A stretch of 64,000 nucleotides of DNA. It comes from Rhodospirillales bacterium (GTDB lineage Bacteria > Pseudomonadota > Alphaproteobacteria > Bin95). Positions 790 through 44,400 of this stretch are shown here, piece by piece. The stretch is from the NCBI GenBank assembly GCA_038143065.1, contig JAYQLI010000012.1:32001-96000 (forward strand), read 5' to 3'. The translations under genes and the position numbers were made by a program. The notes under the pieces were generated by a model. That model saw only the letters and a list, made by a program, of their open reading frames with translations, was not told where the DNA came from and made no database searches. How positions within the stretch are numbered: the first letter of the stretch is position 1; each line of letters begins with the position of its first letter.

Positions 790-880
790 GAAACAGACCT
801 TCGCTGCGTGGACATCAATGTCTGCTATGTGGACGAAGTTGCCCTTCCAGAATGCATTACGAACGGCAATTTGTTGGGTC
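790..880. repeat. Modular palindromic junction site 1
   Basis: AACAGACCTT-15nt-AATGTCTGCT-ATGTGGACGA-AGTTGCCCTT-15nt-AACGGCAATT. Confidence 0.65.
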
Positions 881-989
881 TTTAAATCGAACAGCGTGAA
901 TTTTATTCGATGCAGTTACTCGTAGGGTGCTTGTCATTGATAAATCTCGAAACCTTTCGAGACCCGTATAAATCAAATGAGCTGCCGAT

Positions 990-1720
990 TCAAGCTGACG
1001 CCGAGTTGTAAATGACCGGCATTTTCCCTGTCCATGTGTTCCACGTTTTGTCAGAATAGATTAGTTTGGCCATAAAGTGTGCGACGTTGATACGACTGGT
1101 AGTTCCGGCGTCAAATATCGCATTTCGAGTTGGTGACTCGAGAATCTTATAGTCCGTCACTTCAGTTTCCATCGATTAGCTCCGTCAGGACGGACAGCGA
1201 CCCATTGTATTTGCGGGATGGTTCTGACCAATTTTTGTGCAGTAAATAGTCAAAGCGGCTTTTTCGTTGTCGACGTGGGGTGGCAGTACCAAACGAAGCA
1301 AGCCAATAACGCATTTTTGATTGAAAGAAATCCGCTCATCCAAATCCTGATTGCTGTTCCCAGTTGTGTTCATAAGAAAATAAATTTGATGGCCTCAGTT
1401 GGTTCGTTTTCGCGGATAGCGTCGCACAAACGGCAGACCGCGTCAGTTACAAGCCTGGTGGGTCTTCCGTATATTCCTTGTTGTTAAACAGCCCCAAACA
1501 GGAAACCACCGCGTGACATCCCCGCACAAGAGTAATTGCGCCAGTATTACTCATATCCAAAATGCTCTTTTCAATCACGGACAAATTGGCGTGGTTTTTT
1601 ACCTTTAGGCACGCTTTCAAGGGATCTTACAACGATCCTAACTGCTTAATGTTTTAGAAGTTCTTCCACAAGCAGATGTCCAGTAGGCTCCACTGCGTCT
1701 TCGATAATGAGAATAGTCAT
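990..1720 (-). CDS. NAD(P)-binding oxidoreductase (atypical SDR / NAD_binding_10), frameshifted
   Basis: N-terminus MTILII followed by a degraded Rossmann motif; fragments MNTTGNSNQDLDE..PPHVDNEKAA and TSRINVAHFMAKL..WTGKMPVIYN. Confidence 0.75.
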
Positions 1721-1824
1721 ATTCGTTCCAGTCTTCTGGGTTCTAGCTTTACTGTCTGCGCGTTCAGGGGTATTTTTTTGCTATGCGAATTGACTAAATT
1801 TTATGTTTTGATATGCATATATGC

Positions 1825-2703
1825 ATGGATTGTGATCGATTGCTGATTGGAATAAAGTATGGCGTTTTTGGTGACCAGAGGAAGGTTCACTATCTGCAGC
1901 CGCGTGCTTTGGAAGATGGCACAAATCCAACGCCGGGCTCGTCAGGTCACTGGGTTTCGAGTAAGAGTTTGGCATTGTTCTGTTTGAATGTAGGTCGCAG
2001 TCTACAACTTACCCTGGTGGTGCAGAACTTTGACTAAGCGTCCGCGTTTGGGGATAGCAGGCCGTGTTTCGATGAATGCTTTTGGTCAACGCAAGCGCTA
2101 AAAGGAAAAATCTGTATTTCTGCCAGTGAAACTTATGCCGCTGTGTTGTTACCTCCACTATTAATTATGTATTTTGGAACCGGATATTCATGTCGAAATT
2201 GTTGTCGCCAATCATGCAAGCGATCTGCGCCGCCGCGAAGCCGATATCGCAATCCGTAACTTTAGGCCGACGGAACCCGATCTGATTGCCAAGAAGGTCG
2301 GAGTTGATGCAGTACTATACGCAACGCCAGACTATATCGAAAGTGCTGGCTTCGGCAACCCAACAATGCCCCAAGAATTGCAGCATGCACATTTTGTGAA
2401 TTGGACTATGCGGCGGTGTTTATGATCAAAGGCCCAATAGGTTCATTCGGTTTGACTGAGGAAAACTTTCCCGCTTTTAACGGAAAGCCATCTGGTCATG
2501 TGGGAACCAGGCGCCAAGGGAGCGGCCATCGGTATTCTGGACGCTCACATTGGTGATGCGGACCAATCGTGCAAACGTGTCCTCCCCGACCTTGAACCGC
2601 TTATCTTCCCCATCTGGCTCGTTTCTACACAGGGGAACTCACTACGAGTCATTGCATTCGAAGGGTCTTTGATTTTCTAGCTGAGGAGCTTCATCGAGGA
2701 TAA
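1825..2703 (+). CDS. LysR family transcriptional regulator, frameshifted, divergent from the SDR
   Basis: Remnant HTH (GSLSAAARAL..PTPG) and substrate-binding segment EIVVANHASDLRRREADIAIRNFRPTEPDLIAKK. Confidence 0.85.
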
Positions 2704-2717
2704 GAGCACTTGCATGA

Positions 2718-2805
2718 AGCAGGCGTTTTGTTGCAAACAGAAAATTGGTAAGTTGGGCTCTAAACAGCCATTTGCTGCAATTTGAAAGAATGACCGCTTT
2801 AGCCC
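2718..2805. repeat. Modular palindromic junction site 2
   Basis: ..TTGGGCTCTA-AACAGCCATT-16nt-AATGACCGCT-TTAGCCC, between the converging LysR and StcD-like genes. Confidence 0.6.
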
Positions 2806-2838
2806 AGAGAAAAATCTGAGCCGCTAGGGCCATTAAGT

Positions 2839-4879
2839 TTAAAACGTTTGGCAAAGACGTCTAGAGTCCAGGTATACTAGCATGGATATTTCGGCTCGCC
2901 ACCGCATCCCCAACCCTAAATAGGTTATGACCTCCATAATTAGATATGCTCGGTTGTGCCTCACCTGCTATCAACGCCGGAATATCAACTATTCCATGGG
3001 TTTGCCGCGTTGGCCACCAGCTCAGTAGTAAAGCTCGTCATTCGGCAATGTGCCGTGTTCGACCACAATATAATCTGCCTTTAATTTATAGGGATGGTCG
3101 CCGTAATCAGAGTTAAATTCAGCTAGTACTCCGTTACCTTCGGCTGATACTGTTCAACCTGAAATCAGGTGTCACCTCAACCTGATGGTCATGAAACGCT
3201 TTAATATACATCGGGAAGTTTGATGCCCCCATTTCATGAACCGCATGGCGGTCGGGCGTTACCAGACGCACTTTAAACCCGCGCTTTGCGAGCTCAACTA
3301 CTGTTGATGCAGCTTGATGCTGTCCGTGGTCATCATAAACCAAAACCATCTCTTCACCCGAAGCTATCTTGAGCGCCTCCCCTGACAGCACATCCCATGT
3401 TGAGTGCGCCAGTTCACCACCCTTAATATGCTCAATATCAGGCACACCACCTGTTGCTACCACCACAATATCAGGTTTGAGGGATTCGATCATCTCGCGA
3501 TCTGCAAATTGTTGCCAATGGATATCAACCCCCAGCCTCATTACCTCACTGCTCAGCCAATCAACAATGCCGATCGTGGTCTTTACGTACCTGACTTTTT
3601 GCAGCAAGGCGAACTTGTCCCCCTAATTCAGAAGACGCTTCGATCAACGTCGTCGTGCCCTCGCAAGGCTCGAAACACGGGCCGCTTCTAACCCTGCAGG
3701 CCCGCCACCGACAACCACAACCTTTTTTGCTGTGCCGCCAGATGGTGGAGTGATATGTGGAATACTTCGTTCTCGAGTTGTCGCAACATTATGGATGCAC
3801 AACATCTCACCTTCATTATAGATGCGGTCAATACAATATCCTGCCCCCACACAAGGTCGGATTTCTTCGGCGCGGCCCTCTTTAAGTTTATTGACCAAAT
3901 GCGGATCAGCGATATGCGCCCGCGTCATGCCCACCAAATCAACCAGCTTTTCTTGGATGGCATATCGCGCGGTTGCAAGGTCAGGAGATGCGCGCGCATG
4001 GATGGTTGGCGTTTTCAGCTCAGCCTTAAACGTCCCCGCCAATTGCAGGAACGGAGCCAGCTCTTTAAACATTGCAGGTACCGGATAATTTGCCAGCATA
4101 TATTCCGTATCTGACCTCCCTACATTTAGATTGAAATAATCAATCGTACCGTCTGCTTCAATAATCTTCAGGGCTTCCTAACGCTTCTTCTTTTTGCAAG
4201 CTTCTGTTAGCTTACTGTCCATTTCAACCCGCGCGCCAATCACAAAATCAGTGCCACTATTCCTCTTTAACCTTGTCATAAAGTTCACGCAGAAAACGCA
4301 TCCGCCCTATTAAATCGCCGCCATATTCATCATCACGCAGGTTTGTATCAGGCGAAAGAAACTGCCAGGCAAATGCCCATTTTGCAAAATCTTCAACCAT
4401 CAAGCCCTGCGTCACGGCGTGCGGCGGCAACATAATCACCAATAACGCGTTTGATGTCAGCATGGTCCATCACTTTCGGAAACCCTCGATGGGCAGGTTC
4501 ACGCACGCGAAAGGTGCAATCACTGGCAGCCAATCGCCGTCATTCCACGTAGTTCGGCGTCCCAAATGCGAAATTTGGCACACAATACGGCAATCTTCTT
4601 TATGGATGCGCTCAGCAAATTCTCTAAAATAAGGGATCATCCGATCAGACGACACATCTAGCTGACCGAAGACAGAAGGTGAGTCAGGGCTCACGCAAGA
4701 TGACCCAACCTATCCATCGTCATCCCGATCCCGCCTTTGGCTTTTTCCAAATGGTAACGTTGATATCGCTCTTTTGGCATACCATCCTCTGCTAATGCAG
4801 GCGCGTGGTACGTGCTGACAATACGATTTTTAAGAGTCATCGCCCCCAATTGAAACGGCAATAAAAGCGGGTCTGACAT
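2839..4879 (-). CDS. NADH:flavin oxidoreductase (old yellow enzyme; StcD/N-methylproline demethylase-like), frameshifted
   Basis: MSDPLLLPFQLGAMTLKNRIVST.HAPA..EDGMPKERYQRYHLEKAKGGIGMTM; RPCVGAGYCIDRIY Fe-S motif; VVVVGGGPAGLEAARV FAD motif. Confidence 0.9.
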
Positions 4880-5217
4880 GGCACACTCTCAATTGAAAAT
4901 TTGAGTTCAAAGTATTCGCAAATATGAATTTAGACGGTGCACGAATGCGCCCTTTAAGGCTAAACCACCTTAAATTTTGTCAATTGTCTAGCCCCTATAC
5001 TCGCCCAGTCATTTTAAGTCGGTTGTACTAAGTAAGAATTACTGTTTTTTTCTAGGCATAGCTACACACAGGTTTGTGGAGCCAGGAAAGTCCAGTGAAA
5101 AGAATTTTTTATGACAGCAGAGCTCTGTCGAAAGTCATAATTTTGGTGCGTCTTGTAGCTCTACTTTAAAAACCAAAGAACGAAAAAGAACTTTACTCTT
5201 TAGCTCTCGGCAGGCAG

Positions 5218-5300
5218 AGCGTGTTTTAGCGCTCATGGACCCAAAGGTCAGCGTTGCGGACAAAGCCGACTTTTAAGCTCAAAGCCTTAATGTTGATTTT
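5218..5300. repeat. Modular palindromic junction site 3
   Basis: AAGGTCAGCG-TTGCGGACAA-AGCCGACTTT-15nt-AATGTTGATT. Confidence 0.6.
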
Positions 5301-5427
5301 AGGCCTATTGATAATTTCAGGATTGCAAAATGCTAAATGGCCTTTCCATTACCGATATTCTTATTAAGGTTGAGGTTGCGTGCCGGTATCATCCAGCCAA
5401 GCCACTTGTGCGTTTAAGGAAACTGCT

Positions 5428-6405
5428 ATGCCGATTGATTTTGCAAATGCCCAATCAACTGACACTAAAACGATCCCTGTGATCGACGTTTCAGTGCGGT
5501 TTCTGGTGACGGCATCAACGGTGTTGCAGACGCGATTTACGCCGTTGCCGCGATAAACCATGGTTTTTTTATATCTCGAACCATGGGATAGAATCTGCCC
5601 TGATGGAACAGGCATTTGCAGTCGCCAAAGCATTTTTGAACTACCCGAAAGCGAAAAACAAGCTGTCGCTGTGGACAAAATCAACGCGGCTGGCTGGCGC
5701 AGGATGTCGCGTTTGCAGGGTCAAAGACCCATGACCTAAAAAAGAGGTCTTCTTTTGGGGCGCGCACACGGCGGCAGATGACGCGGACGTGTTGCTGGCA
5801 AACCGCTATGCGCTCTGAACCAATGGCCGAAAGATTTTCCCCGCCTCTGCAGATTTGGTTCCTTACTACGACGCCGTTTGTAAAGTGGCTCGCTGCGTCA
5901 TAGGCGGCGGTGGCCATCAGTCTTGATCAGCCCGCCGACTTCTTTGATGAAGTTTTATGCTAAACCCCTCGCGCAGGCAGATGGTTTATTACCCAGCATC
6001 AACAGCGCGAGACGAAGCAGAGGCCCGCTTCGGCGTTGCCCCACACACGGATTTCGGTGTGCTGACCGTTTTGATGCAAAGACAGCAGTGGCGGGCTTCA
6101 AGTGCGAGCTAAATCTATGACTGGATCGAAGCGCCACTATTCCTGGCACTTTGGTTTGCAATATCGGTGATCTATTTGGCGCGATGGAGCAACAAACGAT
6201 TTGCCTCAACTGTGCATCGCGTGATTAACCGTACCAGCCACCCGCGCTATTCCATACCCCGTATTTTTTGATCCGCATACAGATACAGTCATTGATCCGG
6301 TCTGATCTTGGCGTATCCGCCCACAATAGCCTGTTCGACCCCGTCCGCACCGGGCAATATATCATGGAACGCAATGCAAAGAGCTTTGCCCAATATAAAA
6401 AATAG
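5428..6405 (+). CDS. 2-oxoglutarate/Fe(II)-dependent oxygenase (isopenicillin N synthase family), frameshifted
   Basis: IPVIDVS N-terminus, FGVAPHTDFGVLTVLMQ (HxD), PGTLVCNIGDL, FASTVHRVINR, RYSIP. Confidence 0.9.
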
Positions 6406-6491
6406 GGAAATCGAGACGGCTAATCCATTTTTAACGCAAACAGATTGACGAATATCATTGCGGTTCTTCTTGCCTAAATCTCAACCTTAAG

Positions 6492-6583
6492 AGCAGCCAT
6501 TGATAAAGAGTGCAAAATTAGTCACTTTGCGCTGCTCAGCCGCCATTCGCTGCAATGCGATTAAATGTCCGCTTTGGGTGGGC
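6492..6583. repeat. Modular palindromic junction site 4
   Basis: AGCAGCCATT...AGCCGCCATT-16nt-AATGTCCGCT-TTGGGTGGGC. Confidence 0.65.
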
Positions 6584-6968
6584 GCGCCATGCCTTGTAAA
6601 TGTTGACGCAGCAATCCAAAATAGCCTCCCCTTTCTTCGGTGGAGGTTTTTAAGCTTTGCGTCAGTTGAAAAACCCGCGATGTGGCAACAACCGTCAAGC
6701 CAGACTTTTGTCCGTGGTATTTTCTTAGAACCCATACAATACTTTTGCCGAATTCGTTAACAAATATGGAGGATCGAGCAAAAACCCTAACTTTCTCAGT
6801 CACGCTACAAAGTAGAAATCCAATTTTGCAGGATGCAGCAGCACGGTTATCTGTTACCTCTAGAATGACCAACACGATTCCTGAACCATCCTGCAGCGCG
6901 AGTACCTGAGGAGGCTCTGCACGGTCGAAACATTCGTCTTTCAAGTTTACCGTTAATCGCTTTAGAAC

Positions 6969-14730: not shown

Positions 14731-14744
14731 GCAATGACCTAACC

Positions 14745-15771: not shown

Positions 15772-15774
15772 GGT

Positions 15775-16569: not shown

Positions 16570-16591
16570 TCTAAGCAGAATATATCAAACT

Positions 16592-16607
16592 AGTTGACTA
16601 GTCAACT
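16592..16607. promoter_or_regulatory. Perfect 16-bp palindrome, candidate HutC-type operator
   Basis: AGTTGACTAGTCAACT about 23 bp upstream of the GntR start codon. Confidence 0.65.
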
Positions 16608-16988
16608 TTGAGATTATCTTTTATCGGTGTCAACAATCCATGCAATACATCATTTAGCTCCCGCATGGCGCCTGATTGCTCCGCCATCCCCCACGGGGAG
16701 CAACTTCTTAGCCGTTGACGGTGAACTGCAAGAAGTAATTTGGTCATTGTTGATATGAATGGCGGTTTTGATGAATCAACCCAATGCACCTAGAACATGG
16801 CACGCAAGGCAAACATACACGACACGCGCGAACGCATCTAAAAAAGTCAAACCTTTAGTAAGTGAAAGTAGGTTGGAAAGTTGGATAGTTTGTATCTAAG
16901 GTATTGTTTAGATTGTAGAAGTAAGCCTTTCAAAAAGAGAAAGATCTTTGGAAATGTATTGGAAAGTTGTTGGAAAGCTTGTTCCTTA

Positions 16989-17190
16989 TGCCCCCTAGAA
17001 CTGTGCCAGTATATATTACAGCGGAGTAAGGAAACATGGCTGAAAGCGTTATTCTGATGAAGATGTTGAAGTTATTGCGCGAGATTGATGTTCATTTGCA
17101 CGATGGTTTGGACGTTGTGAGGCAAAAAAGTTGCAAAGCTGGGGATTTCAGATAAGAGTTATTATTTCGGCGGGCAGTTTGGAGGCCTTT
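16989..17190 (+). mobile_element. IS3-family remnant (left end plus truncated orfA)
   Basis: Degraded MARKRYSDED.LKLLREIDVHLHDGLDVV..AGISDKSYY; a homologous remnant lies at 49669-49832. Confidence 0.75.
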
Positions 17191-17468
17191 TCGCAAAAAA
17201 TAGCAGATAAATTCGATCGCTGGTATAAACATAAAGATCTCACTGCAAATATAATCGATGAGATTTCCTTCTGCCGTTATTAACGGTACGAACATTGATC
17301 CAAGAATGTGTTTTGCACTCCATTCGGGCAAGAAATACATCTTGCCTGGCAATACAGCACGTCGACTTTGGCGGAGGGATATTGTGATTTGAATTTTTGG
17401 CAAAAGCCAAGTTATCGCAATACAGAGCCAACAAAACGCGCCTGAAGCCACTTGGAAGCTCTCCAAGA

Positions 17469-17535
17469 CTCCAGTATAAAGCGCAGCGAAAGACTGGAGT
17501 GAGCCCAAAGTAGCCGTTGCTGCAAAGCGTCGACT
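17469..17535. repeat. Modular palindromic junction site 5
   Basis: ATAAAGCGCAGCGAAAGACTGGAGTGAGCCCAAAGTAGCCGTT, nearly identical to 44340-44377. Confidence 0.7.
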
Positions 17536-17690
17536 GAAGGAATAAGCGGGAGGCTAAATCCTTTCCTCAAAAAGTGCAGAACATAGTGATTGGCCTGAGC
17601 CGTCAAAAGCTAAATGAGAAGCGTCTTCAGTTCGGCAGAAAACAAGGCAGCACCTCTTCAGGTGCCACCAGTCTGTTTCGGCCAATAATA

Positions 17691-19094
17691 CTACTTCAAA
17701 ATGATTTCCGGCCCCATGATGAGGTTGGGTAGAAAGGTCGAAATCCAAGGCACGTAGGTTACCAAGATCAAGAAAACAAAAAGAACGCCTAGGAATGGAA
17801 GCGCAGCCTTGACGACCGACATCATTGGCATGCCAGCAACGCCTGAAGTGACAAATAAATTTAACCCAACCGGTGGCGTGATCATACCAATTTCCATGTT
17901 AACAACCATAATGATACCGAGGTGAATCGGATCAATGCCCAGTTCTATCGCAATTGGAAAGACCAGTGGAGCGACAATCACAAGTAATCCTGAAGGCTCC
18001 ATGAACTGCCCACCAATCAGCAGGATGATGTTCACGACGATAAGGAACATAACCGGTCCGAAGCCCGCCGATAACATTGCATTAGCCACATGTTGTGGAA
18101 CTTGTTCATCCGTCAGAACATGCTTAAGAATGAGCGCGTTTGCGATTACAAATAAGAGCGTAACGGTGAGTTTGCCTGTTTCCAGCAGCGTGTGCTTTGT
18201 ATCGGATGGAAGAAAGCTGTCACCAGCGCCCAAGGCTGACGCCATAAAGAAGTGGTCCCTCTTGGACCCTCATAGGCAGCGGAAAGATCGCGCGGGCCTT
18301 TTTCGGCAAGTGGACCCATATCTTTGTAGATAAAGTTGGCAATGAAGAATGCATAGACCGCAGCAACCGCGGCCGCTGATTGGGGTGAATACCCCTCCAT
18401 AGATACCGCCAAGGATAATCACGATTAAGAAAAGGCCCCAACCGGCTTCGCGTCCTGAGGCAAAAACCTCTCTCCATCCTCGCCATTCGCCTTTGGGTAA
18501 GTTTTTCACCTTTGCAATGACATAAATCGCGGTCATAAGCATAAAGCCAGCCAAAAGCCCCGGGATGACGCCAGCGAGAAACATCCGTCCAACCGAAACT
18601 TCCACCGAAGCCGCATAGACAACCATCACGATAGAGGGTGGAATAAGAATTCCCAGCGTACCTGCATTGCAGATCACACCTGCAGCAAAATCCTTTGAAT
18701 AGCCAACTTGGATCATTCCTCCAATAACGATCGTTCCAATTGCCACGACAGTTGCTGGTGAAGAACCTGACAGGGCTGCAAACAGCATGCAGGCAAAAAC
18801 GCCGGCAATGGCCAGCCCACCGGGCAAGTGTCCGACACAGGCAATTGAAAACCGGATGATCCGCTGGGCAACGCCGCCAGTTGTCATGAACGAAGAGGCT
18901 AGAATAAAAAACGGGATCGCAAGAAGCGTATAGTGGCCCTCGAAGGCGCTGAACAGGGTTTGGGCCACTGATGCAAGTGAACTGTCAGAAAAGGCTAGCA
19001 GAAACAGCAGGGAGGACATGCCAAGTGCGACCGCGATCGGTACACCGATAACCAGCATGCCGATGACTAAGGTAAAAAGTAGAACAACTTCCAT
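17691..19094 (-). CDS. dctM: TRAP transporter large permease, frameshifted
   Basis: LLAIPFFILA, GSSPATVVAIG, GILIPPSI, GIDPIHLGII, GMITPPVGLNLFV. Confidence 0.93.
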
Positions 19095-19761
19095 CAGGAT
19101 TTCTTTCTCAACTGCTCACGAGCATCTTGGATTTCATCTTCAACCTCATGACTGGCCACCAACCGGTCAGCCGCGCCGACCCAGAGAGCCCATGCAGCTT
19201 GCAGAAACCGGAAAAGCATCAAAGCCATTGACAATGGCAGAACGAGATATGGCAAAAGGCGTGGGATTTTCTCGTATTCTTCGCTTTCATTGAAGACAGT
19301 TTCCATCCATCCTAATATGGCGGGATGCGGGATGTCATTGACCTCGTACCATCCTTTGTCGCGGTACTTTTCTTCAAAACCGAGCGGAAACCAACGCCCC
19401 TCCGTGCCCGGCAGATTGGCGAAATTCGCCCAGTAGTCCCAAGCTCCTTTCAGCATTAGGAAAGCTGAAGGCAACGCATACAGCCACAGCAACCAACCCC
19501 CAAGACGCGGCGTGATTTCGAAGTTAGAATATTGACGACGATATCAACACCAAGATGTGAACCCTTTTTGACGGCATAAGAGGCGCCGAGGAGTACCAAC
19601 CAACCGAAGAGAAAGACAGTTAGCTCAAGAGCCCAAAGAATGTTTTTGTTGAACCCATACCGCGCCACGACGTTGGCGAATGTAATCAATGTCATTACGC
19701 CAAGAATGGCTGAGATCAACGTCTCCTCAATACGATCGGTAAACGATTTTGAGTGATTCAT
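19094..19761 (-). CDS. dctQ: TRAP transporter small permease, frameshifted
   Basis: TFANVVARY, WALELTVFLFGWLVLLGASYAVKKGSHLGVD. Confidence 0.9.
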
Positions 19762-19827
19762 AATTTAACTTTCCAAGCATGTTAGAAGGCGTCTAAAACG
19801 CCTCCGAACAGGTTGAATCAAGTGACT

Positions 19828-20820
19828 TTAATTAAGGGATTGTGCTGCGTTGATCATGTCCTGACCAACATCATCCGCGAATTGATCCCAGACTGGTTTC
19901 ATAACATCAACCCATGCCTGACGCTCTTCAGGCGTTAGAGTCCGAACTGTGCTGCCCGCCTCAATTATAGCTTGCCGGTTGGCTTGGTTTACAGCAAAGG
20001 ATTGAGCATTGCGAAGCTCAGTTACCTCGTTCAAGATCGTTAAAAACTGGTCGCGGACATCGGCTTCCAGGCTATCAAGCCAATCAACACTGGTCACAAC
20101 CAGATAGTCAATAATACCGTGGTTGGTTTCCGTGATACCGTCCTGTACTTCGAAAAACTTCTTACCATAAATGTTTGACCACGTGTTTTCTTGCCCATCA
20201 ACGACACCTTGCTGTAACCCACCATAGACTTCAGAAGGCCATTTTTTGTGGAGCTCCTCCGGAGTGCTTCCATTTGGGCCACCAAAACGTCTGACGACAT
20301 CACACGGAATTTAAGACCATTAGCGTCTGCTGGTGACATCAACGGTACATTAGCAGACATTTGTTTCATACCGTTATGCCAGAATGTCAAACCTTGAAGA
20401 CCACGCTTTTGCATACTGTCCAGCAAAGCCTGCCCAGCATCAGAGCCTTGGAATGCATCGACGGCTTCGATGTTCTCGAACATGAAAGGCAAGTCAAAGA
20501 TACGGAACTGTTTGGTGAACTTCTCAAATTTTTGACAGCGATAGGCGCTGCTAATTGAACATCATTCTGAAGCAATGCTTCAAGAACTTTATTATCGTCA
20601 TAAAGGGTTGAATTTGGGAAAACCTCCATACAGGCCTTGCCGTTCATCTCATCATTGACACGCTGCTCTAGCAACGTGGCTGCTATTCCTTTTGGATGTT
20701 TGTCAGTGTTGGTAACATGGCTAAATTTAATAACGGTTTCGCCTGTATCGCAAGCGGCAAACGCGGATGTAGCACCTAATGCAATGTCATCGATAATGCT
20801 GTGTTCAACAGAAATTTCAT
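19828..20820 (-). CDS. dctP: TRAP C4-dicarboxylate-type solute-binding protein, frameshifted
   Basis: KFSHVTNTDKHPKG, EVFPNSTLYDDNKVLEALL, WHNGMKQMSAN, GLKFRV, GQENTWSNIY. Confidence 0.92.
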
Positions 20821-21000
20821 GATATCCTCCTTTGGTTCTTTTTACCGCGTTCCTGATTTCTTCTGGCGCGGCTTATGTTGGAAAGATTACTGGGATTGAC
20901 GCTGAAGATTAGTCGACAAAACTGTTCAGTTTTTACGATTAAATATTCAGGTTTAATCTGAAATAGTGGATAAAAATTAAACATACCCAGGGAGTTCAAA

Positions 21001-21913
21001 ATGTTTGAGGGTTTCGTGCGCGAGCGTATCGAAGGAGACGGTGCGACTTTGTTTGTTCGCCGCGCTGGACCTCAAGATGCACCTCCGCTTGTTCTTCTTC
21101 ACGGTTATCCGCAGACTTCCGCTATGTGGCACGGTGTGGGCACCAATTCTGGCACGCTCTTATCAAATCGTCTGTCCCGATTTACGCGGATATGGTCAAT
21201 CAGATAAACCAGTGTCAAATGCATCGCATCAGCCATATTCAAAACGTGCTATGGCCAATGACATTGTCGCTGTGATGCGGCGTTTGGGTCATGAACGGTT
21301 TCTGGTTGGCGCCCATGATCGGGGGCGCGGGTGGCGCATCGGATGGGTTTGGATCATCCTGATCGTGTTGCCGCCATGACTTTGCTCGACATCGCACCGA
21401 CCCGCGAAATGTATGCCAATACCAGTGTCGAATTTGCGCACGCTTATTGGCACTGGTTTTTCCTGACACAGCCAGACCCGCTGCCCGAAAAAATGATCGG
21501 AGCAGATCCCGAAACGTTCTGGAAGATGAAATGCTTTAAACAGGCAAAGCGGCGAAAATCCGTTTTCCTGCGAAGCTCTGACGGAATACCTGAGCGCCTT
21601 CGCAGAACCCCGACGCTATTCATGCAAGCTGTGAAGACTATCGTGCCGCCGCCAGATCGACATTGAACATGATGACGCAGATCAGGGTCGAAAACTCGAC
21701 ATGCCACTCTTGACGCTCTGGGCGAAAACGCGGAGTAATCGAAACATGCTTTGACGCACTTAGCACTCTGGCGGCAGCGGGCTGAAAGGGTTGAGGGCGA
21801 AGCGCTCGATACCTCTCACTATATGGCTGAAAGAAATCCCAGGTGACATAGCAGAGCGCATGTCTGATTTCTTTTTCCGCAATCCGATCCACGCAAAGGA
21901 AACTGCTCAATGA
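21001..21913 (+). CDS. Alpha/beta hydrolase, haloacetate (fluoroacetate) dehalogenase-like, frameshifted
   Basis: LLHGYPQTSAMWH, DLRGYGQS, YSKRAMAND, HDRG (Asp nucleophile), LDIAPT, YWHWFF, CEDYRA. Confidence 0.88.
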
Positions 21914-23290
21914 CCCGCACGCTCTACGACAAACTGGTGGATAACCATAAGGTTTGCGATCTGCCCGATGGCGATATGCTGATTTATGTCGATTTTCACA
22001 TCATGAATGAATACACCAGTCCGCAGGCGTTTTCTGGTCTGGAAACAAGGGGTTAAGCGTCTGGCGTCCGGAGGCGCATCTGGCTGTGATCGATCATGTG
22101 AACGCAACCCGCAGTGTCGAAGCACATGATGCGGCAATCCAAAGCTGCTGATCGATAATTTGGAAAAAACTGCACCAAACATCAAATCGCATTTTACGGT
22201 TTGGGTGACCCGCGGCCAAGGCATTGAGCATGTTATAGTTCCAGAACAGGGCTTGGTCACGCCGGCATGCTGATAGCATGCGGCGATAGCCACACAACAA
22301 CCTATGGCGCCTACGGCGCGTTGGGGTTTGGCATCGGCACATCGAAGTGGAACATGTTCTAGCAACGCAAACGCTACGATATAAGCGTATGAAGACAATG
22401 CGCGTTATGATCGACACGAAAGCACCAGGCGTGACGGCAAAAGACATCATAATGAAGGTGGTCCAAGTCGTGGGCGCAGGTGGAGCCAATGGGTTTGCTG
22501 TTGAGTTTGCAGGTTCAGCCATTGTCGGTCTTGATATGGCCGGACGGATGACCGTCTGCAATATGGCGGTTGAGTTGGGCGCGCGTGCGGCGTTGATCGC
22601 AGCAGATGAAGTCACCGAAGCGGCGCTTACAAGGATACCCGCACAGCGGTCAATTTGCGTTTAATGGTGAAGACTGGGTCAGCGATTCCGGAGCCGTCTT
22701 TGACAAGGAGGTCACCGATTTCAGGGGCCGATATCGAGCCTTTGATCACATGGGGCACCAGTCCAGACCAATCAGTACCGATAACCGCGAATGTACCTTC
22801 TGCGTCTCGATTACGTCTCTCCCAAAGCCAAGGCGGCTTTAGCGCGGTCTTTGCAATACATGGGGCTCACAGAAGGGGCAAAGTCGGCCCAATCGATCAA
22901 AATCGACACGGCCTTTATTGGCTCGTGTACCAATAGTCGTATCGAAGATCTACGAGAGGCAGCCAAAATACTGGAAGGCCGGCAAGTCGCGGAGGCGTTG
23001 AAGCTATCGTAGTTCCTGGCTCCGCCATGACACGGATAAAGGCGGAATCCGAAGGTCTGCGCGCGATTTTGAGGACCGCAGGGTTTGATTGGCGACCAGA
23101 GGCGGGCTGTTCTTTGTGTCTAGCGATGAATGACGATATTGCTATGGAGGGGGAACGGGTAGCTTCATCGACTAACCGGAATTTTGAAGGGCGGCAGGGC
23201 CGAGGCGCACGCACCCATCTAATGTCACCCGCAATGGTCGCTGCAGCAGCCGTTTGTGGGCATCTGGCTGACATACGAGATTTTGAGTGA
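21910..23290 (+). CDS. leuC: LeuC-like aconitase-family hydratase large subunit, frameshifted
   Basis: [67 protein letters not shown]. Confidence 0.9.
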
Positions 23291-23301
23291 AAGACAAACC
23301 A

Positions 23302-23901
23302 ATGATAAAAACTATTAAAGGAATCGCGCCCCTTGCCACTGGCGAATGTTGATACGGATGTGATCATGCCGAAACGGTTTTTGATTACAATCAGCCGCGA
23401 AGGCTTGCAGATGGTACCTTTGCCGATCTGCGCTTTGACGCAGCTGGCCAAAAGCGGCAAGAATTTATTCTAAATAAAACGCCTTGGACGCAAGCAACAA
23501 TCTTAGTTGTCGGAGATAATTTTGGATGCGGTTCAAGCCGAGAACATGCCGTCTGGGGAATGCGCCAATTGAAGATTGATGCCTGTATAGGAACAGGGTT
23601 CGCTGGGATATTTTATGATAATGCGCGTAAAAATGGTCTTGCTTTGCCGGTCGTATCTCCTGAAGTGCGAGACTTACTTTTACAATTTTCGGATAATCAA
23701 AGCGGCGCAGAGATTTCCATAAACCTTGAGCGCCGTATGATTGCCGCAGGTGAAAGTTCGGTGCCGTTCGAGATGGATGATACGCGAATAGCGCTGATCC
23801 GAGGCCGCGACGATACGCTTGACACGTTGAGCTACGCTTCTGCAATCCGCGAATTTGAGACTGGATTGGATGAAAAAATGCGGATAAGCGTTATAAAATG
23901 A
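23302..23901 (+). CDS. leuD: LeuD-like small subunit, frameshifted
   Basis: NVDTDVIMPKRFL, NFGCGSSREHAVW, FAGIFYDNARKNGL. Confidence 0.9.
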
Positions 23902-23920
23902 ACCTGCAGAGGATATTGGA

Positions 23921-24812
23921 TTGGACATAAGACAACTGGAGTGTTTCATCGCTGTCGCCGAAGAACTTCATTTCAGGAGCAAGCGAACGCCTAGGGCTAA
24001 GCCAATCCGCTCTCTCTGAACGGGTTTCTTCGTTGGAACACGAACTGGGCGCCCCGACTGTTTTTTAGAACTACTCTGACAAGTCAGTCTGACCCAAACT
24101 GGATCTGAATTTGCACAAGATGCAAAAAGGATCCTGACCGATATTGATAAATCGGTTTCCAATGTTCGCCACACCGCCGAGTCGGACCTTCACCACATTC
24201 GCGTAAGCGGTGTTGACGAGGCAATTTCGATGTTACTACCGCAGGTTCTACTGACATTTCGGCAGACCGATTTTAAGGTGCATGTACAGGTTCTGGAAAT
24301 ATCGTCATCCGAACAACATTCCCACGAGTTGATTGCCCATAGAACTGATGTGGCCTTCGTACGGACGCGCCTAGAAGATGACTTTATTTCCAGCGAACTT
24401 TTGCATCGTCAACCCATCGTAGTGGTCCTTGCCGAGACGATCCTCTTTCAAGATCGGTATCCCTGTCCATAGCAGACATCGCGGATCAACCAATCGTGGG
24501 TTACCCTAAGCACGCGCGACCAATCCTGCACGAGGCTTTGTGGAGTGGTTTTCGAAAAATTGGTGCCCAGCCAAATATAGTTGTGAGATTATTGACAAAT
24601 CCACCCTGTTGCAGTTTGTCGCCCCATGGGCTAGAATCGCCTTGGCACCAGCCTGGGTCAAGAATATTGCACCGCCTGGGATCTCTTTCGTCCCCTTTGA
24701 ACCTCCGAAAACCTGATCGATTTATAAGGTGGCATTTCGAAAGTCGGGTAACTCCGAGACTGTTAAAAGGTTCGTTGAAACCGTCAGAAAAAGCATTATC
24801 CAGGCGACTTAA
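23921..24812 (+). CDS. LysR family transcriptional regulator, frameshifted
   Basis: LDIRQLECFIAVAEELHF HTH start; DVAFVR in the substrate-binding domain. Confidence 0.85.
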
Positions 24813-24913
24813 TTGCAAATATTTTTTGCCAATGGCTGCGTATTGCTTCGGCGCCTTTTTTGAAATTAAAACGTTATTAGGACTGGAAGTCAGCAACTTA
24901 TTAAGTAGGCGCA

Positions 24914-24976
24914 AAATTACGCTTTGTCCGCAAAGCAGACCTCAGGCATTGGCCTTGCGAATGTCTGATTTGGGTT
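24914..24976. repeat. Modular palindromic junction site 6
   Basis: AAATTACGCT-TTGTCCGCAA-AGCAGACCTC-16nt-AATGTCTGAT; its linker is the reverse complement of the TTGCGGACAA linker in site 3. Confidence 0.65.
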
Positions 24977-25091
24977 AAGGTACAAATCGAAACGCTAATT
25001 ATGATTAAAATCAGGACCACATTTAGACCGCTTTATAATTTCATCTTAAAAATAAGTAATTGTAATTAAATAGAAGTATATAAAGTACGAC

Positions 25092-34786: not shown

Positions 34787-34958
34787 AAATTCTAGTATAA
34801 TTTATAATAAAATAAGCAAAAACAGTGGTATAGATTTGAAGTGGACCACTTTTGGGACCGCTTGGAGGACCAGTTTGTCGAAACTGTTCGCTAAATTGTC
34901 AGTGTTAAACCACCAGTTTTACTTGCAACTAGGCAGCTAAGTCTCAAAGCTAACAGCT

Positions 34959-36254
34959 ATGAGTGATGATATGCCGCTTAAACTCCCACGCTATGTATTC
35001 CGCCGTGCCAATGGCAGCTTTCGATATAAACGCAACGTTCCCTTGCATCCTAAGAGCCCTGATTGGAAAGCAACGCTCTATCGCCAGCTTGGGGATAGCT
35101 ACAAAGAAGCCATGCAAAACCTGCCGCTGATACATGCTCGAATCGAAGCTCTGCTAGAAGGTGAGAAAGAGAAGTCAGCACGAGATCGCAGTATTGAGAT
35201 TATTGGGGTGCGCTGGGCGATGAAGTGGCGGATATGGTACTGGCTAATGCCGTACCTGAGTATTCTGAAATTGAGGATGCGCTTAATGAGTTGGGTAAGG
35301 CTCTGCATAAGCAAAAGCTTCCTTCAGAGATTGTAGAACAGGTTTATTCAGGCAAGTTAAAGCAAGAGGTCATAACGCTTGAGTCGGTTCTAAAAGACTA
35401 CGTTGCCTATAAGTCAGATACACCCAAAAGCAGAAAAGGAAATCAAACAGCGGGTTGAAAGGCTGCGTAAAGACATGCAGCACATCTACGGTAAGCAAAA
35501 GCTTAAGTATGTCTCGCTTAGTGATATCAGCAGGCAAGATGCCAATGATCTAAGGGATCACCTACTAACCCGTGTGTCGGCCAATAGCGCTGTTAGAATG
35601 CTGGGGGTTGTGAGAACGGCTATTAACCACGCAATCGTGGAGCACAGTCTCAACATCCCGAATGTCTTTACCAACCTTCGCATTAAAGGTGCAGGTGCAA
35701 GTAACTAGATAGGCTACCGCTGGTGATACTCAGATCGTTCATTTAGAACAGCTTATTCGAATGACACAACAGCCTGGGCGCTGTTTGTTTGTCTGAGAGA
35801 TACGGGTTGCAGAGTATCAGAAATAGCAGGCCTGAGGGTCAAAGACTGTGACACTGACAAAGAATGTTTAATCATATCCCCCACCCCTTGGAGAACGCTA
35901 AAAACCAATAACTCGCAGCGCTCTGTGCCACTCTCGCCAGAGGCTATTAAAGCGCTCGAGGAAGTATCTCAGGGCAAAGATCCTGAGGCACCTCTCTTTC
36001 CCCGATATGCAAAGGAGCGTGGAGGGGATAACTGCTCAGCCATGCTGATGAAGCGCCTAAGAACCATAATCACAGACAAGAAGCTTACGATGCATTCACT
36101 ACGCCACCGTATGAAGGACAAGCTGAGGAATACAGGCTGCCCGGAGGCCATCTCCATGGCTATACTAGGGCATGGTTCTAACACGGTCGCTGCGAACTAT
36201 GGCTCAGGCTATGCCCTAGACGTCATGAGAGAGCATATGGAAAAGGTGTGGTAG
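34959..36254 (+). CDS. Tyrosine integrase 3, frameshifted
   Basis: FRRANGSFRYKRNVP, DTGCRVSEIAGL, HSLRHRMKDKLRNTGCP, LGHGSNTVAANYGSGY. Confidence 0.92.
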
Positions 36255-38277: not shown

Positions 38278-40066
38278 ATGACAGATAAGAAAGAAAAAAC
38301 TCCAAAACAAAAAAGCATTTCTGAAAGAGAACGTGCAGAAACAGTTGCCCGGGCAATCTTGGCGCAACAACCCCAACTTTCGAAAACAGCGCCACGCAAA
38401 GAAAAACTCGCCTGGGACCAAACTCCTACCTTGCCCGGTCAAGTGGGGGATTGGATCGACCAACAACCCGTAGCATGTTGATCAATTCCCTCAGTTGGTC
38501 GAATGGTCAACACGTACCTGAGCAACTGGAACATATCCTGATGATTATGGCCCAATGGTATGTGCGCAAGGATGGTAAATATTATGACGTTGAGGAACCA
38601 GGGCCAATGTTATCCCGAGACGACGTAGAGCGGGTAATTATTCAAAAGATTAAAGGAAGAATTTCCGGCCAACGCTTTAAGCAACGATGCTGTAAGTCAA
38701 CTCCTACAAGTTTTGATTAAGGATCAGTTTGTCGACCCTAGGCGTTCAATCCCAATATGGTCGGGCTTACGTCAATCAATGCCTGGTAATACTCGCAAGC
38801 TTGCCTTCAAAGGATGGTCGCCACGATAAACACATGGAAAGCTCCAGAGTATCGCTCGTTGAATATCAACAAACCAAGCTGGGGACCCTTCGAGAAGTAT
38901 ATGGAGGTAACGTTTCCCAGACCCAAAGAACGAGAAATGCTGCTCAACTGGCTTGCCTGGTGCCTACAAAACGAAGGGGACAAACCTGGCTGGGCACCTT
39001 TCCTCTATTTCTCAACAAAGGGATCTGGAAAAAGTACTTTTGCAAAGATTGCAGGGTTGCTGTTTGGAACTCAAAACACAGCAACAGAAAAATAATATCA
39101 ATAAACTGGTTTCTAGGTTCAATGCACCAATCCTAGAAAGAAGCTGGTCGTCTGTGAAGAGCTTTACGTACCCCAGGGTCAGACAAAGCAAATGCAATCA
39201 AAACCTTCATAACTGAAAAAGAAACAGTAGCTGAACATAAGTACCAAGCAGTTCAGCAAGTAGAACAAGTTTGCGCGTTTATCTTTATAACCAATCACAA
39301 ACCCATCTGGCTCGAAGAAGATGATAGGCGTTTTTATGTCATAGAAGTCGACCATGATGGTCACAGATGGGGGCCAAATGGTGAAGCATATTCAAAACAA
39401 GTCGCATCCCTGATGGATTACCTCCAAGACAATACTAACCTGGCCAAACTCTACGGGGCGCTTATGCAACATGATATTCCCGTTGAGTTTGATGCTCCTC
39501 GCTTGATGTCCTTGGATCCTCCACGAGTGTAATGCAAAGAGATACGGCAGGCTTCAGGGGATATTGGACGCCAGATTGTTAAGGAGTGGCTAGATGGAAA
39601 CGGTGTAGTAGCCATAAACAATGTTGGAATTAAGGCTCTAGTCAAGGAAACTACATAAGTAAGGCCAGCGCGATGAAATATACTGAGCGATCTAGGCTGG
39701 ACCCAGGTACAAGCAAAATATGACGGTAAAGATTACCAAAAGTCCATCTGGCTAAGAGAAGGATATACCTTGAAGGCGGGAGTCCTGCATCACGCAGACG
39801 GTTGGTCTCGAGACACTGAAGAAGGCGAGCATCATTTCGATGACCGAATGGTTTCCGACGTATTCCGGGTCTATAGCCGTCGTGATTTGTTTGGGAAGGG
39901 ATTGAGCTTGATGATAAAGATGCTGGCTTCTGAACTGGAGCGAATTCGAGCGCGCCACAAAGTGTATATGCGAGAGCGTATGCAGGTATTGATAAGCGAT
40001 GCTCAATATCTCTGGTGGGATTGGGTGTTCGTCAATCGTTTCGAAGAGGCTCTTAAAGAAATATGA
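38278..40066 (+). CDS. D5/DUF5906-like SF3 helicase (primase-helicase family), frameshifted; may be more than one gene
   Basis: LLNWLAWCLQ..KPGWA, KGSGKSTF Walker A, LVVCEE Walker B, FITNHKP..EEDDRRFYVI motif C. Confidence 0.82.
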
Positions 40067-41570: not shown

Positions 41571-41880
41571 TCCTAGAAAGTCAGTTTAAGAGTACAAGCT
41601 TCTGGAAAGAACTTCATATAATACTATTTCATCAACTTGGTTTATTGACAACCTGCAATCACAGAGTAATTGTCAGTCCACAAAATATTCTGGTTGGGTG
41701 AAATGAGATTAACTGCTTCTTTACCTTCAAGTTATTCTCTCGAGGTGCCCAAAAAGTGGTAACGACCACTGCCGAGGTCGTGTCTAAAAACCCAGAGGCA
41801 GCTTCGTTAACAGAAACAGTAATTAAAGGGTCACCAATTATGCACATGTTGGTGAGCGTTTAATTCACTTTCACTTAATT

Positions 41881-42174: not shown

Positions 42175-42442
42175 GCTTGAGCATGCACGCTTAAAAGCAC
42201 TTGTAGATAGATCTAAAAATAAAGATGAAAGCTCATCGGTCTGGGATACGATTTCAGCGTATAACGGTTAGTGAGGACGTCGAAAAAAGAAACAAAAAGA
42301 AGAATAGAATACTGTCTTGACCAAAAATTCAATACGAACTTTTAGATTTTCCATGGTTATTAATTGCCCACTAGTCACAGCCCCGTTAAAACTGAGCATT
42401 TTTGAGCATCTATGATGGTAACAAGAAAAGGAGATTACCATC

Positions 42443-42673
42443 ATGCTTACCTTATTTTTGCTGCTCGCTGCTGCGGGCGGTATCCTTCGGCTTACCCTGG
42501 CCTGGCTGTTAAAACAGCGCTGGGGCGTATCTATTGGCGTCCCTCAAGCCTTAGCCGGTGCGCTTGTGGTGCTGGCAGGACTGCCTGAGTTCATTAAATC
42601 CATTCCCTTTCCAGTGCCTTTAGGCCTGACCATTGGCCTGCTGCTTCCAGACCTTTTGCTGAGAAGAGGCTGA
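42443..42673 (+). CDS. Small hydrophobic membrane protein
   Basis: RBS AAGGAG upstream; 76 aa with about three hydrophobic segments. Confidence 0.6.
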   Translation: MLTLFLLLAAAGGILRLTLAWLLKQRWGVSIGVPQALAGALVVLAGLPEFIKSIPFPVPLGLTIGLLLPDLLLRRG

Positions 42674-42985
42674 TATGGGGCAGCTGGATATAAGACCAGG
42701 ATGCATCGTGCTGATAGCAGGCTTTGATGACATCCCAGAGCACAAATTCCTTATAGAAGAAATCTATGAGGGAGTTCGTTACAGGTATGGCTCTCTCGGT
42801 CCCTTTGCAGGGGGCCACGGAGAGCCAGACAAAGGATGATCCAGCTGTGATTACTCAGGGAACAACCAACGACAGCTGAGTGTAGCTGTCAGGGAAGGGC
42901 TTAAACCCAGCCCTTCATTGTTCTTACTCACAAAATCCCAACTCAACATCAAAACCAGGGCAATTGCCCCAGCAAGGGAGACAGT

Positions 42986-44239
42986 ATGTCTGCAGACATA
43001 AAATACGCCTATAAACGGCATAACACCTGGGTCTATCCCTTAGAACCTATCCCAAGGCGCTGCAACCCATCCTTGGTTCCAAGCCTCAAGCAATCCCTCA
43101 GAACAGCTGATGCCAAACAGGCAAAAGTCAGAGTGGCAGAGCTTAATCAAACATTCACAAACCTCGTAAAGGAGGCACAGGCTCATGCTGATGCTGCAAC
43201 AGATGAACCCAACCCTGAAACTACTCAGCTTGGTGTGGCTTCCTCGATATCAGCGCGCAAGGCTTCTGGGTGAGCAGCCTGTTCATGGGTTAGCGAGGAG
43301 ATATCTAAAAGAGCTATCTCTAACGCTTAGACCCGGCACCACAAAGTCCATTCGCTATGCGCTGGAGCTTCTAAGTTCTCATGTAGGCAAGAAGCAAAAG
43401 ATAGGGGAGCTTAGCACTGATACAGGAAGAGATATCTTAAAGCTAATATCCAAGCTCTCTCCCAATGTCAGGAAATACGCAAAGGCTAAGGAGGCCAGCC
43501 TAACAAAGCTAGTAGAGCTCTCACAAACCTATGAGGCCATATCCCTGACACCACAAACGCAGGGCCGTATCTTCAAACAATGCAGCGCTTCCTTGACTGG
43601 TGCGTGAGAGAAGGAGAGCTAGACAGCAACCCTTGGTCAACTCTCAGCATAAGAGCAAAGCCAGAGGTCTCCCCTCATGGCGTTCTAACAGATGAGCAAG
43701 TCTCAACCCTTCTCAAAGCCAAGGATAGGGTGCTTCACAGCGCCCTTCTCTTTGGCCTGCTCACGGGAATGCGCTCAGGGGAGATCTGCGGGCTCATGGC
43801 AGAGGATGTAACCCATAAAGGCAACCTTGGGCGGTTTATCAAATCAAGCCCAACGCTATTCGGCAGCTCAAGTCAAAAGCAGCTGAACGGGAAGTACCAC
43901 TTCATCAAATCCTAGAGCAGCTTCTGGATACATCCCTGCCAAAACAGGGAAGGCTATTTCCCTACCTAACAGTTGATGCTGTGGTGAAGCGGTATGCCAA
44001 GCTCAGAAGGCTCTACCCTGAACTCCAAGGCAGCGTGTTCCACTCTACCCGCAAGTGGTTCATCACTCCAGTGTGAGCGCACAGGCACCCCTGAGCACTT
44101 CACGGCCTCCCTTGTGGGACATCACTCTGCGAGGTCTGCCAATAAGCTTACCTATAGGCTTTACTCAGGAGGCATCAGTGATGCTCAGAAGAGAGCAATT
44201 GTGGATGGGGTGAGGTTGCCATCAGAGCTGGCGTTATAA
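42986..44239 (+). CDS. Tyrosine integrase 4 (DUF6538-type), frameshifted
   Basis: KRHNTWVY, LKQSLRTADAKQA, LLTGMRSGEICGL, FHSTRKW, LVGH, final Tyr in YSGG. Confidence 0.88.
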
Positions 44240-44250
44240 CCCCTAAATAT

Positions 44251-44289
44251 CCCCCGTCTGGCTGCCCTTCGCGGGTGGTCAGGCGGGGG
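44251..44289 (+). terminator. 17-bp stem-loop directly after integrase 4
   Basis: CCCCCGTCTGGCTGCCC-TTCGC-GGGTGGTCAGGCGGGGG; all four non-Watson-Crick pairs are G-U on the + strand. Confidence 0.65.
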
Positions 44290-44326
44290 TATGACACTAA
44301 TTTTTTGTAAAATACAACTGACCAAA

Positions 44327-44400
44327 TGCGGACATTAGCATAAAGCGCAGCGAATGACTGGGTGAGCCCGAAGCAGAATTTAGCGATAAAGTCTAATGGT
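44327..44400. repeat. Modular palindromic junction site 7
   Basis: TGCGGACATT-16nt-AATGACTGGG-TGAGCCCGA-AGCAGAATTT. Confidence 0.7.

Follow-up and report, generated by a model that had tools for sequence, protein, structure and literature searches.

A short repeat recurs between unrelated groups of genes in a 64,000-nt stretch of contig JAYQLI010000012.1 (positions 32,001 to 96,000 of the forward strand; assembly GCA_038143065.1, filed as a Rhodospirillales bacterium). The whole stretch is called the window here, and the question raised by this locus is what the repeat does. The initial annotation had read seven copies as recombination sites for the capture of gene cassettes, possibly served by a neighbouring tyrosine recombinase. 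As described below, the repeat is a unit of about 69 bp that is found at the edges of mobile segments, occurs widely in roseobacters and repeatedly follows the stop codon of one type of tyrosine integrase. We see an even chance that the units are attachment (att)-type duplex sites of tyrosine-integrase-borne marine roseobacter islands and of their integrase-less cargo modules.

Sequence of the repeat unit

An alignment of 27 units of this assembly (A1), which is the basis of covariance model R1, gave the consensus nnTTTGGGCTCnAAGCAGnCATTCGCTGC, about 12 nt, then AATGTCTGCTnTGCGGACAAAG. The arms of the unit are two-boxed. The outer boxes, TTTGGGC and GSMCAAA, are about 45 nt apart, and the inner boxes, AGCAGNCATT and AATGNCTGCT, form arms of about 10 bp on both sides of a centre of about 16 nt. 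At E≤1 the 4.63-Mb assembly contained 36 R1 matches, 30 of which passed E<0.01. Seven of these 30 were located in the window and coincided exactly with the seven sites of the initial annotation (Table 1); the region 50–64 kb, described as free of sites, contained no match. A loose core pattern, GCTGC-N8-16-AWKGWCYGC, occurred 4 times in the window against 0.09 expected, and 0 of 100 shuffles reached 4. Sites B and D contain a degenerate second unit in tandem, which gives the 45–46-bp period that had been assigned to the system as a whole. Sites E and G had been called nearly identical over about 38 bp, and measured 93.5% identity over 31 bp.

The palindromic character on which the initial annotation relied proved weak. 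In the 27 units 65.1% of the proposed base pairs were formed, against 66.1 ± 1.3% in shuffles, and no covariation was seen. When folded as single-stranded DNA, 0 of 12 units were better than their own shuffles (z −1.85 to +0.91). In 108 roseobacter units the paired cells amounted to 72.7%, against 69.1 ± 0.7% in shuffles, and 0 of 500 shuffles reached this value; the excess is weak, is accompanied by two-sided changes, and comes from an alignment that was fitted to the model and includes reverse-strand readings of the same sites. The unit is a roughly 69-bp, loosely dyad-symmetric element in which the sequence is conserved and not the structure.

Units at module junctions

The assembly consists of one contig of 2.86 Mb (C35; 62% of bases, open reading frame (ORF) cover 0.84) and 51 small contigs (1.78 Mb, cover 0.07–0.91). 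The 30 copies found by R1 at E<0.01 were spread over 11 small contigs; the 2.86-Mb contig had none. To describe the junctions, a breakpoint was defined as the end of a paralogous block of at least 400 bp and at least 80% identity, and all small contigs were covered. A breakpoint was present within 30 bp of 21 of 32 sites, against 1.33 ± 1.13 at random (maximum 6 in 2000 trials). The expectation of the initial annotation that the sites lie at module boundaries is borne out in the window: six of the seven sites are supported by paralogue breakpoints, and site D by five copies of a 135-nt element whose flanks are unrelated. This element comprises one unit and a GC-rich hairpin with a T-run.

Several modules of the window recur on other small contigs as shown by BLAST, and the flanks beyond the breaks are unrelated. 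Positions 1–838 have five further copies in the assembly, and the paralogue homology to C50, C1 and C2 stops within unit A or at its 3' edge. Module Y, between sites B and C, recurs on C2 (96.7%) and on C50 (93.4%). At site B the homology to these contigs (97% and 93%) begins at 2753, where the module starts with TTGGGCTC, and the left flanks are unrelated; at the other end the break follows GCGGACAAAG. The neighbours of module Y differ as well, since it stands after segment X' in the window and after segment X on C2 and C50. The TRAP-LeuCD module, between sites E and F, recurs on C8 at 96.5% over 7.5 kb, and its homology starts at 17478, inside the loop of site E. Unit F, at the other edge, is about 30 nt from the left end of an integrase element, and an integrase fragment is located 604 nt away. 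The segment 42380–44308 recurs on C2, C13 and C1 at about 91%. Segments flanked by unit copies are thus module Y (B and C), the TRAP-LeuCD module (E and F) and a cassette of two Rhodobacteraceae isolates (L199/L218, both ends).

Contigs of the Logan collection from three independent marine metagenome data sets were also compared with the window; data sets X1 and X2 look like one, thin-cover parts of the window were left out of the reading, and runs X3–X5 and X8–X24, whose word shares were at most 0.44, did not enter the evidence. Contigs begin at 808/816 in unit A, start or stop at 2753/2760 in site B, stop at 6533 and begin at 6647 at site D; further ends were found at 16769, 17191 and 17459. 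Single contigs also join positions which are separated in the window, namely 834 to 2753, 2705 to 6546 (21 other letters), 6651 to 17191 and 6673 to 16775. The joints, weak one by one, represent module-sized presence/absence variants in natural populations. Together with the 21 of 32 sites at breakpoints, these variants agree with the suggestion of the initial annotation that synteny breaks and module presence or absence map to the sites. Excised circles were not seen in the contigs, which were compared instead of raw reads.

In model coordinates the breaks are located at positions 4, 13, 25, 29, 34–36, 43, 49–52, 56–62 and 68–71. The mode is at 59–62, just after GCGGACAAAG. BLAST extension through similar units blurs these positions.

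Units, integrases and ORF194

Of the 39 Phage_integrase matches of the assembly, 35 are on small contigs, and the window contains four integrases within 25–44 kb. An intact integrase of 447 aa is encoded just upstream of the window (C12:28829-30169) and matches Phage_integrase and, weakly, DUF6538. It is 50.7% identical over 428 residues to an integrase of Boseongicola aestuarii (L237) whose stop codon and a unit are about 10 nt apart. In the window, integrase 4 carries DUF6538 and is followed by a terminator-like hairpin and then by site G in the opposite orientation. The same layout recurs at C2:25665, and a different integrase on C8 abuts a unit at C8:10320. Among 13 roseobacter loci of this integrase family with downstream DNA, the unit starts 0–60 nt past the integrase match in five (L259, L260, L261, L262 and L266), and in all five it is opposite to the gene in orientation. 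This place of the unit behind the stop codon is preserved among integrases of 50–77% identity to the query. The proposed service by a neighbouring tyrosine recombinase is supported by this repeated arrangement behind DUF6538-type integrases, but not by overall proximity within the assembly, which was not significant (see Discussion).

A second gene, ORF194, is found in at least six copies in the assembly (window 132–701, C50, C2, C1 and C12:69.6 kb are among the places), and a unit or unit relic follows it at five places. In the copies just named it always stands between a DUF6538-type integrase and a unit. A single-cell genome of Paracoccaceae shows the layout integrase, ORF194, unit, as do C12, C1, C2 and C50. 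Close homologues of ORF194 number 243, and most come from metagenome contigs of about 1 kb. It matched no Pfam family, and its AlphaFold model (mean predicted local distance difference test score, pLDDT, 60.3) matched no PDB fold at E≤0.001. ORF194 could be an accessory recombination factor.

In a metagenome-assembled genome (MAG) of Amylibacter (L242, 1848–3551), two units are located just downstream of a gene for a 307-aa Xer-like recombinase that resembles the housekeeping XerC/XerD. This neighbourhood may be a coincidence, or a hint of Xer acting on units.

Units in roseobacter genomes

The core pattern was found in 87 stretches of species-representative genomes. Roseobacter taxa account for about 63 of the 80 listed titles, and the rest are near the estimated chance level; R1 confirmed 109 matches in these 80 listed loci. 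B. aestuarii has at least 148 R1 matches, a floor because 150 candidates were scored, and four other whole genomes scanned with R1 contained 15, 7, 23 and 18 copies. In the order of the window's source, one to three weak copies were present in 3 of 36 relatives. The unit family is roseobacter-wide and not local to the window.

Eighty-five roseobacter loci contained 172 units. Of the 92 neighbouring pairs 69 shared an orientation, the median spacing was 1128 nt, and 16 pairs were tandem, 41–116 nt apart. In 29 of 47 intervals, 60% or more of the length was taken up by one ORF; gene and unit were co-oriented in 26 of 47, so that the two orientations are unrelated. In B. aestuarii one array (L232, from the start of its contig to 12.2 kb) packs 12 units into 12 kb, most of them separated by one gene. 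Its cargo includes HxlR, GNAT, a GDSL lipase, an ankyrin-cytochrome c protein, two SnoaL proteins, two methyltransferases and a TPR regulator. Units are located 11–100 nt after stop codons, and genes start 7–50 nt past a unit. In array L232 the first three units point one way and the next nine the other way, and the array end adjoins TetR, NDUFS4 and uvrB; many contigs of the B. aestuarii assembly start or stop in a unit.

Segments that start or stop at a unit are shared between loci and between genera. B. aestuarii and Ruegeria share one at 87% over 1.39 kb, and two Tateyamaria genomes one at 96% over 1.58 kb. Two Rhodobacteraceae isolates share a segment with units at both ends (99.6% over 1.1 kb), and two contigs of B. 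aestuarii one at 89%.

The position behind stop codons would also suit a regulatory or transcript-end element of accessory genes (an operator, a 3' untranslated region stabiliser or a terminator) with no role in recombination, and the copies of site D type are fused to a terminator-like hairpin. However, no T-run follows the unit itself in alignment A1, a stable stem is lacking, and an Rfam scan found no family that matches the unit. This explanation also leaves the breaks of module homology and of metagenome contigs at units unexplained, and we give it little credence.

The arrays invite a further comparison, with integrons. Here the units would be folded single-strand sites like attC, cut at the stem base by a dedicated recombinase, and the island integrases would be bystanders. 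The two-box arms, with about 16 nt at the centre, are similar to the R and L boxes of attC, many breaks lie at the outer edges (positions 4 and 59–62), the intervals are compact and hold single genes that start 7–50 nt after a unit, and a weak pairing excess is present in the 108 roseobacter units. On the other hand, folding energies equal those of shuffles and the 27 units of the assembly lack covariation. The integron integrase IntI (TIGR02249) was not found in 6 of 6 genomes, the best scores being 82.2 bits in this assembly and, over five roseobacter genomes, 90.2 bits, where the cut-off is 265. The box polarity is reversed, and genes are not co-oriented with the units. An integron analogue of this kind is improbable.

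Origin and quality of the assembly

In positions 1–50 kb of the window no stop-free frame is longer than 281 aa, and all recognisable genes appear as overlapping frame fragments. The region 50–64 kb is normal, with another break at about 59950. An alternative genetic code was rejected, since the number of ORFs in the intact right part rises as well when any one stop codon is read through. The C8 copy of 17478–24940 has DctM, DctQ, DctP, LeuC and LeuD intact, and the C50 copy of 2753–5265 has an intact gene of 652 aa. The window and C2 differ by 39 gap events and 30 substitutions. An independent metagenome contig over 6647–16769 (10.1 kb) differs from the window by 148 gap letters and 63 other letters, which corresponds to about 1.5% indels. 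Because of the intact paralogues and the metagenome contigs, the frame breaks are probably, for the most part, long-read assembly indels and not gene decay. The picture of a backbone and of decayed genes rests largely on these indels.

A noisy long-read assembly might also have made the junctions themselves as chimeric joins. The indel rate would fit this, and the small contigs are redundant, with 22% of bases in repeats of at least 400 bp. We consider such an artefact very improbable, since the units and their junction behaviour are also seen in independent metagenome contigs and in isolate genomes of other genera.

The 2.86-Mb contig is the sole carrier of rpoB and recA. It is 96% identical to a relative of 2.6 Mb over a 3.2-kb test stretch, and its RecA is 80–83% identical to diverse Alphaproteobacteria and 76–79% to roseobacters. 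The window-type integrase has 12 matches on small contigs, and 35 of the 36 genomes examined from the same order lack a match at E≤1e-30. Seventeen related loci were found in species-representative genomes, 14 of them with roseobacter titles, at 48–88% identity, apart from one fragment of 73 residues at 99%. Small contigs carry roseobacter-type integrases, ORF194 and units, which are absent from the 2.86-Mb contig and its relatives. Therefore, from the integrase distribution and the RecA affinities, contig C12, to which the window belongs, may stem from a roseobacter population and be mis-binned, or may be an imported mobilome of very large size, and the bin is possibly chimeric. Module Y was not found in 40 relatives, which gave two chance-level matches only, and positions 50.9–62 kb of the window gave paralogue-level matches only (63–75%) in 24 relatives. 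A plasmid collection gave gene-level matches only (66% identity), with no unit or ORF194 context.

Other features of the window

The coordinates of sites, modules and genes are given in Table 1. The gene labels of the initial annotation were recovered in part, namely a LysR fragment, the so-called StcD (Oxidored_FMN/Pyr_redox_2), the nucleoside/ABC genes, TRAP, LeuCD, the integrases and DLH; SDR and 2OG oxygenase were not recovered with Pfam at 1e-5. Relatives of the module Y enzyme in plasmid annotations are named N-methylproline demethylase or NADH:flavin oxidoreductase. The IS3-type orfA remnant has a second copy at 49660–49830, truncated too, and about 10 copies in the assembly; one copy is at the border of the island region and the intact genes. 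Repeats like GGACCACTTNTGGGACCGCTT are found at the integrase-proximal left ends of islands (window 24990–25080 and C12:28560-28720) and contain a stretch resembling the right arm of the unit. They could be arm-type binding sites of the integrase. A fragment of DUF5906 (primase/helicase-associated) is located at 39158–39529, within the integrase cluster, and suggests a satellite- or tycheposon-like replicative nature for one island.

Table 1. Repeat sites, modules and selected genes of the window. Positions are those of the window unless a contig is named; bits are scores of model R1.
Feature	Position	Strand	Description
Unit A	779..846	+	50.3 bits; 3' end of the multi-copy ORF194 module
Site B	2714..2817	+	Degenerate unit 2714-2752 and unit B 2750-2817; 47.1 bits
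Unit C	5205..5273	+	34.7 bits; 3' end of module Y; homology stops after GCGGACAAAG at 5265
Site D	6490..6668	+	Degenerate unit, unit D 6524-6592 (47.6 bits), terminator-like hairpin
135-nt unit-plus-hairpin copies	6524-6668; C50:35670; C43:4713; C2:28084; C13:18281		From alignment
Site E	17449..17540	-	Unit (17449-17511) with replaced right arm and degenerate tandem unit; 32.8 bits
Unit F	24914..24982	-	41.1 bits; other edge of the TRAP-LeuCD module; C8 homology stops at 24940
Unit G	44307..44375	-	45.3 bits; right after integrase 4 and terminator-like hairpin; orientation opposite to gene
ORF194 (189 aa as read here)	132..701	+	Unknown protein
Module Y	2753..5265	-	Oxidored_FMN + Pyr_redox_2 flavoenzyme; frameshifted here, intact (652 aa) on C50
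Module E-F	17478..24940		TRAP DctPQM, hydrolase, LeuCD, LysR; frameshifted here, intact on C8
Integrase 4	42445..44236	+	DUF6538-type, frameshifted; 4 copies in assembly
DUF6538-type tyrosine integrase	34941..36251	+	Frameshifted; its paralogue at C12:28829-30169, just upstream of the window, is intact (447 aa)
IS3-family orfA, 5' remnant	16975..17190	+	Translated N-terminus read by eye, no family search

Discussion

Two of the observations are those expected of att sites: a unit is present at the island end beside an integrase, and unit copies flank mobile segments. We propose the following mechanism. An island, or an integrase-less cargo module that carries a unit, would recombine with a resident copy. 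Each integration would leave a unit on both sides, so that repeated integrations would build arrays of modules with single or tandem units between them, and recombination of two units would delete or swap modules. The exchange would be site-specific, and the DUF6538-type integrases would be the enzyme. The site would act as duplex DNA and not as a folded strand, because the units fold no better than their shuffles.

A wider form of this proposal may be put forward tentatively. Roseobacters and the DNA of the window would then possess an IntI-independent gene-cassette system, with tens to well over 100 single-gene or operon modules per genome, each delimited by one conserved 69-bp duplex site and taken up, stacked and swapped in trans by DUF6538-type integrases. 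It would be a functional counterpart of the integron in Alphaproteobacteria, whose reported lack of integrons is puzzling. The capture of cassettes, as put forward in the initial annotation, receives support from the modules that recur elsewhere and from their presence or absence in nature, but a fixed crossover point and the co-orientation of genes with sites (26 of 47) are missing.

The main rival is a passive intergenic repeat, selfish or structural, of the kind of repetitive extragenic palindromic (REP) sequences or miniature inverted-repeat transposable elements (MITE). Such copies would settle between the genes of flexible regions and would mark junctions only through this placement and through ectopic recombination, homologous or illegitimate, which shuffles the DNA between them. 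A single unit in each intergenic gap, its position near gene ends without bias in gene orientation (26 of 47), the breaks scattered along the unit and the at least 148 copies of B. aestuarii would all be expected of such a repeat. So would the lack of significant integrase proximity in this assembly and the units just past the 3' ends of other genes, for example the Xer-like gene of the Amylibacter MAG. Against it, the associated transposase RAYT (PF01797) is absent from 5 of 5 unit-bearing genomes, with a control that was positive in 6 of 14 reference genomes, and the unit has no stable hairpin. Copies are grouped in arrays and not scattered. The unit moves with its gene between genera, with homology from the unit edge, and its position after the integrase stop is kept although the integrases are 50–77% identical. 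A REP-like scatter over the genome, which the initial annotation had named as the contrary case, is refuted for this assembly, in which 0 of 30 copies are on the 2.86-Mb contig; it is refuted only in part for genomes such as B. aestuarii, whose copies are numerous and clustered in arrays. A passive repeat is rather unlikely in our judgement.

Several results speak against the units being att sites of the islands. The five roseobacter loci with a unit behind the integrase come from three genomes and are homologous elements, hence not independent, and eight of the 13 loci have no adjacent unit. In this assembly 3 of 30 units are within 200 nt of the 45 integrase loci, against 1.25 ± 1.07 at random (249 of 2000 trials reach 3). 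Within 1 kb there are 4 units against 2.7, and within 3 kb 8 against 6.2, on the same assembly contigs; a list of integrases based on Pfam only gave 1 unit within 500 nt against 0.8 expected. Units account for only 25 of 369 paralogue breakpoints. The Logan joints have short sides (23–30 nt), and three are marked "between: not known". No single crossover point is found among the break positions taken from BLAST ends. The small number of units beside integrases is expected if most modules are integrase-less, and is equally expected of a passive repeat.

Roseobacters belong to the most abundant marine bacteria and to the metabolically most versatile, and the movement of their flexible genes is poorly understood. 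If the units are att-type sites, a site found at the bounds of single genes and operons, common to several genera and linked to one integrase family, would provide a testable mechanism of gene flow, and model R1 would be a sequence tag for finding cassettes in metagenomes. No description of the repeat or of DUF6538 integrases was found in openly searchable papers, subscription journals and supplementary files being outside this search.

Comparison with known systems

As the initial annotation had stated, the sites match neither attC nor dif-type sites, as judged by IntI, box polarity, folding and geometry. Sites of the dif/pdif type have two arms of about 11 bp around a centre of 6–8 bp. The unit has arms of about 10 bp, a centre of about 16 nt and outer boxes, and does not fit an 11-6-11 geometry. 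A likeness to pdif and other Xer-dependent systems remains in that modules are located between short dyad sites and the mover would be a tyrosine recombinase acting in trans.

With REP sequences and their paired hairpin forms (REPIN) the unit shares its short length, its intergenic place, a palindromic design and an occasional tandem arrangement. It differs in that no stable hairpin is formed and that only flexible regions are occupied.

In attC the boxes follow the order R''(RYYYAAC)...R'(GTTRRRY), and the cassette boundary is at G/TT. The outer boxes of the unit, TTTGGGC...GSMCAAA, have the reverse polarity, and the boundaries are found before TTGGGCTC, after CAAAG and at other places. The likeness to integrons and to attC clusters that have no integron-integrase (CALIN) lies in mostly single accessory genes between copies of one conserved site, loosely palindromic and two-boxed in each arm. 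It also includes cassettes common to several genomes, with homology that stops at the site, and a miscellaneous cargo (GNAT, SnoaL, methyltransferases and small unknown proteins). In contrast to integrons and CALIN, the sequence is conserved here rather than the structure, genes are in both orientations, and modules extend up to multi-gene operons of 7–10 kb. The part of the IntegronFinder paper that we consulted gives no integron, In0, CALIN or attC cluster in 243 alpha-proteobacterial genomes (PMC4889954). A cassette system with another type of site is a possible answer to why integron finders detect nothing in Alphaproteobacteria.

The setting is also similar to that of tycheposons, as it is marine and contains islands of integrase-borne elements with cargo modules, and the island of the window has the primase-like DUF5906. 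Tycheposons of Prochlorococcus reportedly use tRNA genes and leave partial tRNA repeats. In the window a tRNA scan found no tRNA gene, Rfam gave no match, and the repeat is a distinct 69-bp unit.

In tandem accretion of the kind known for integrative and conjugative elements (ICE) and cis-mobilizable elements (CIME), integrative elements and their integrase-less derivatives stack at one att site. The islands described here resemble this process: a tyrosine integrase is found at the island end beside the site, copies of which flank integrase-less modules, and several islands stand in tandem. They differ from it in that the site does not form the terminus of a tRNA gene or of a housekeeping gene but is itself dispersed, with 30 to at least 148 copies per genome that make many landing pads, and in that the arrays reach gene-by-gene density.

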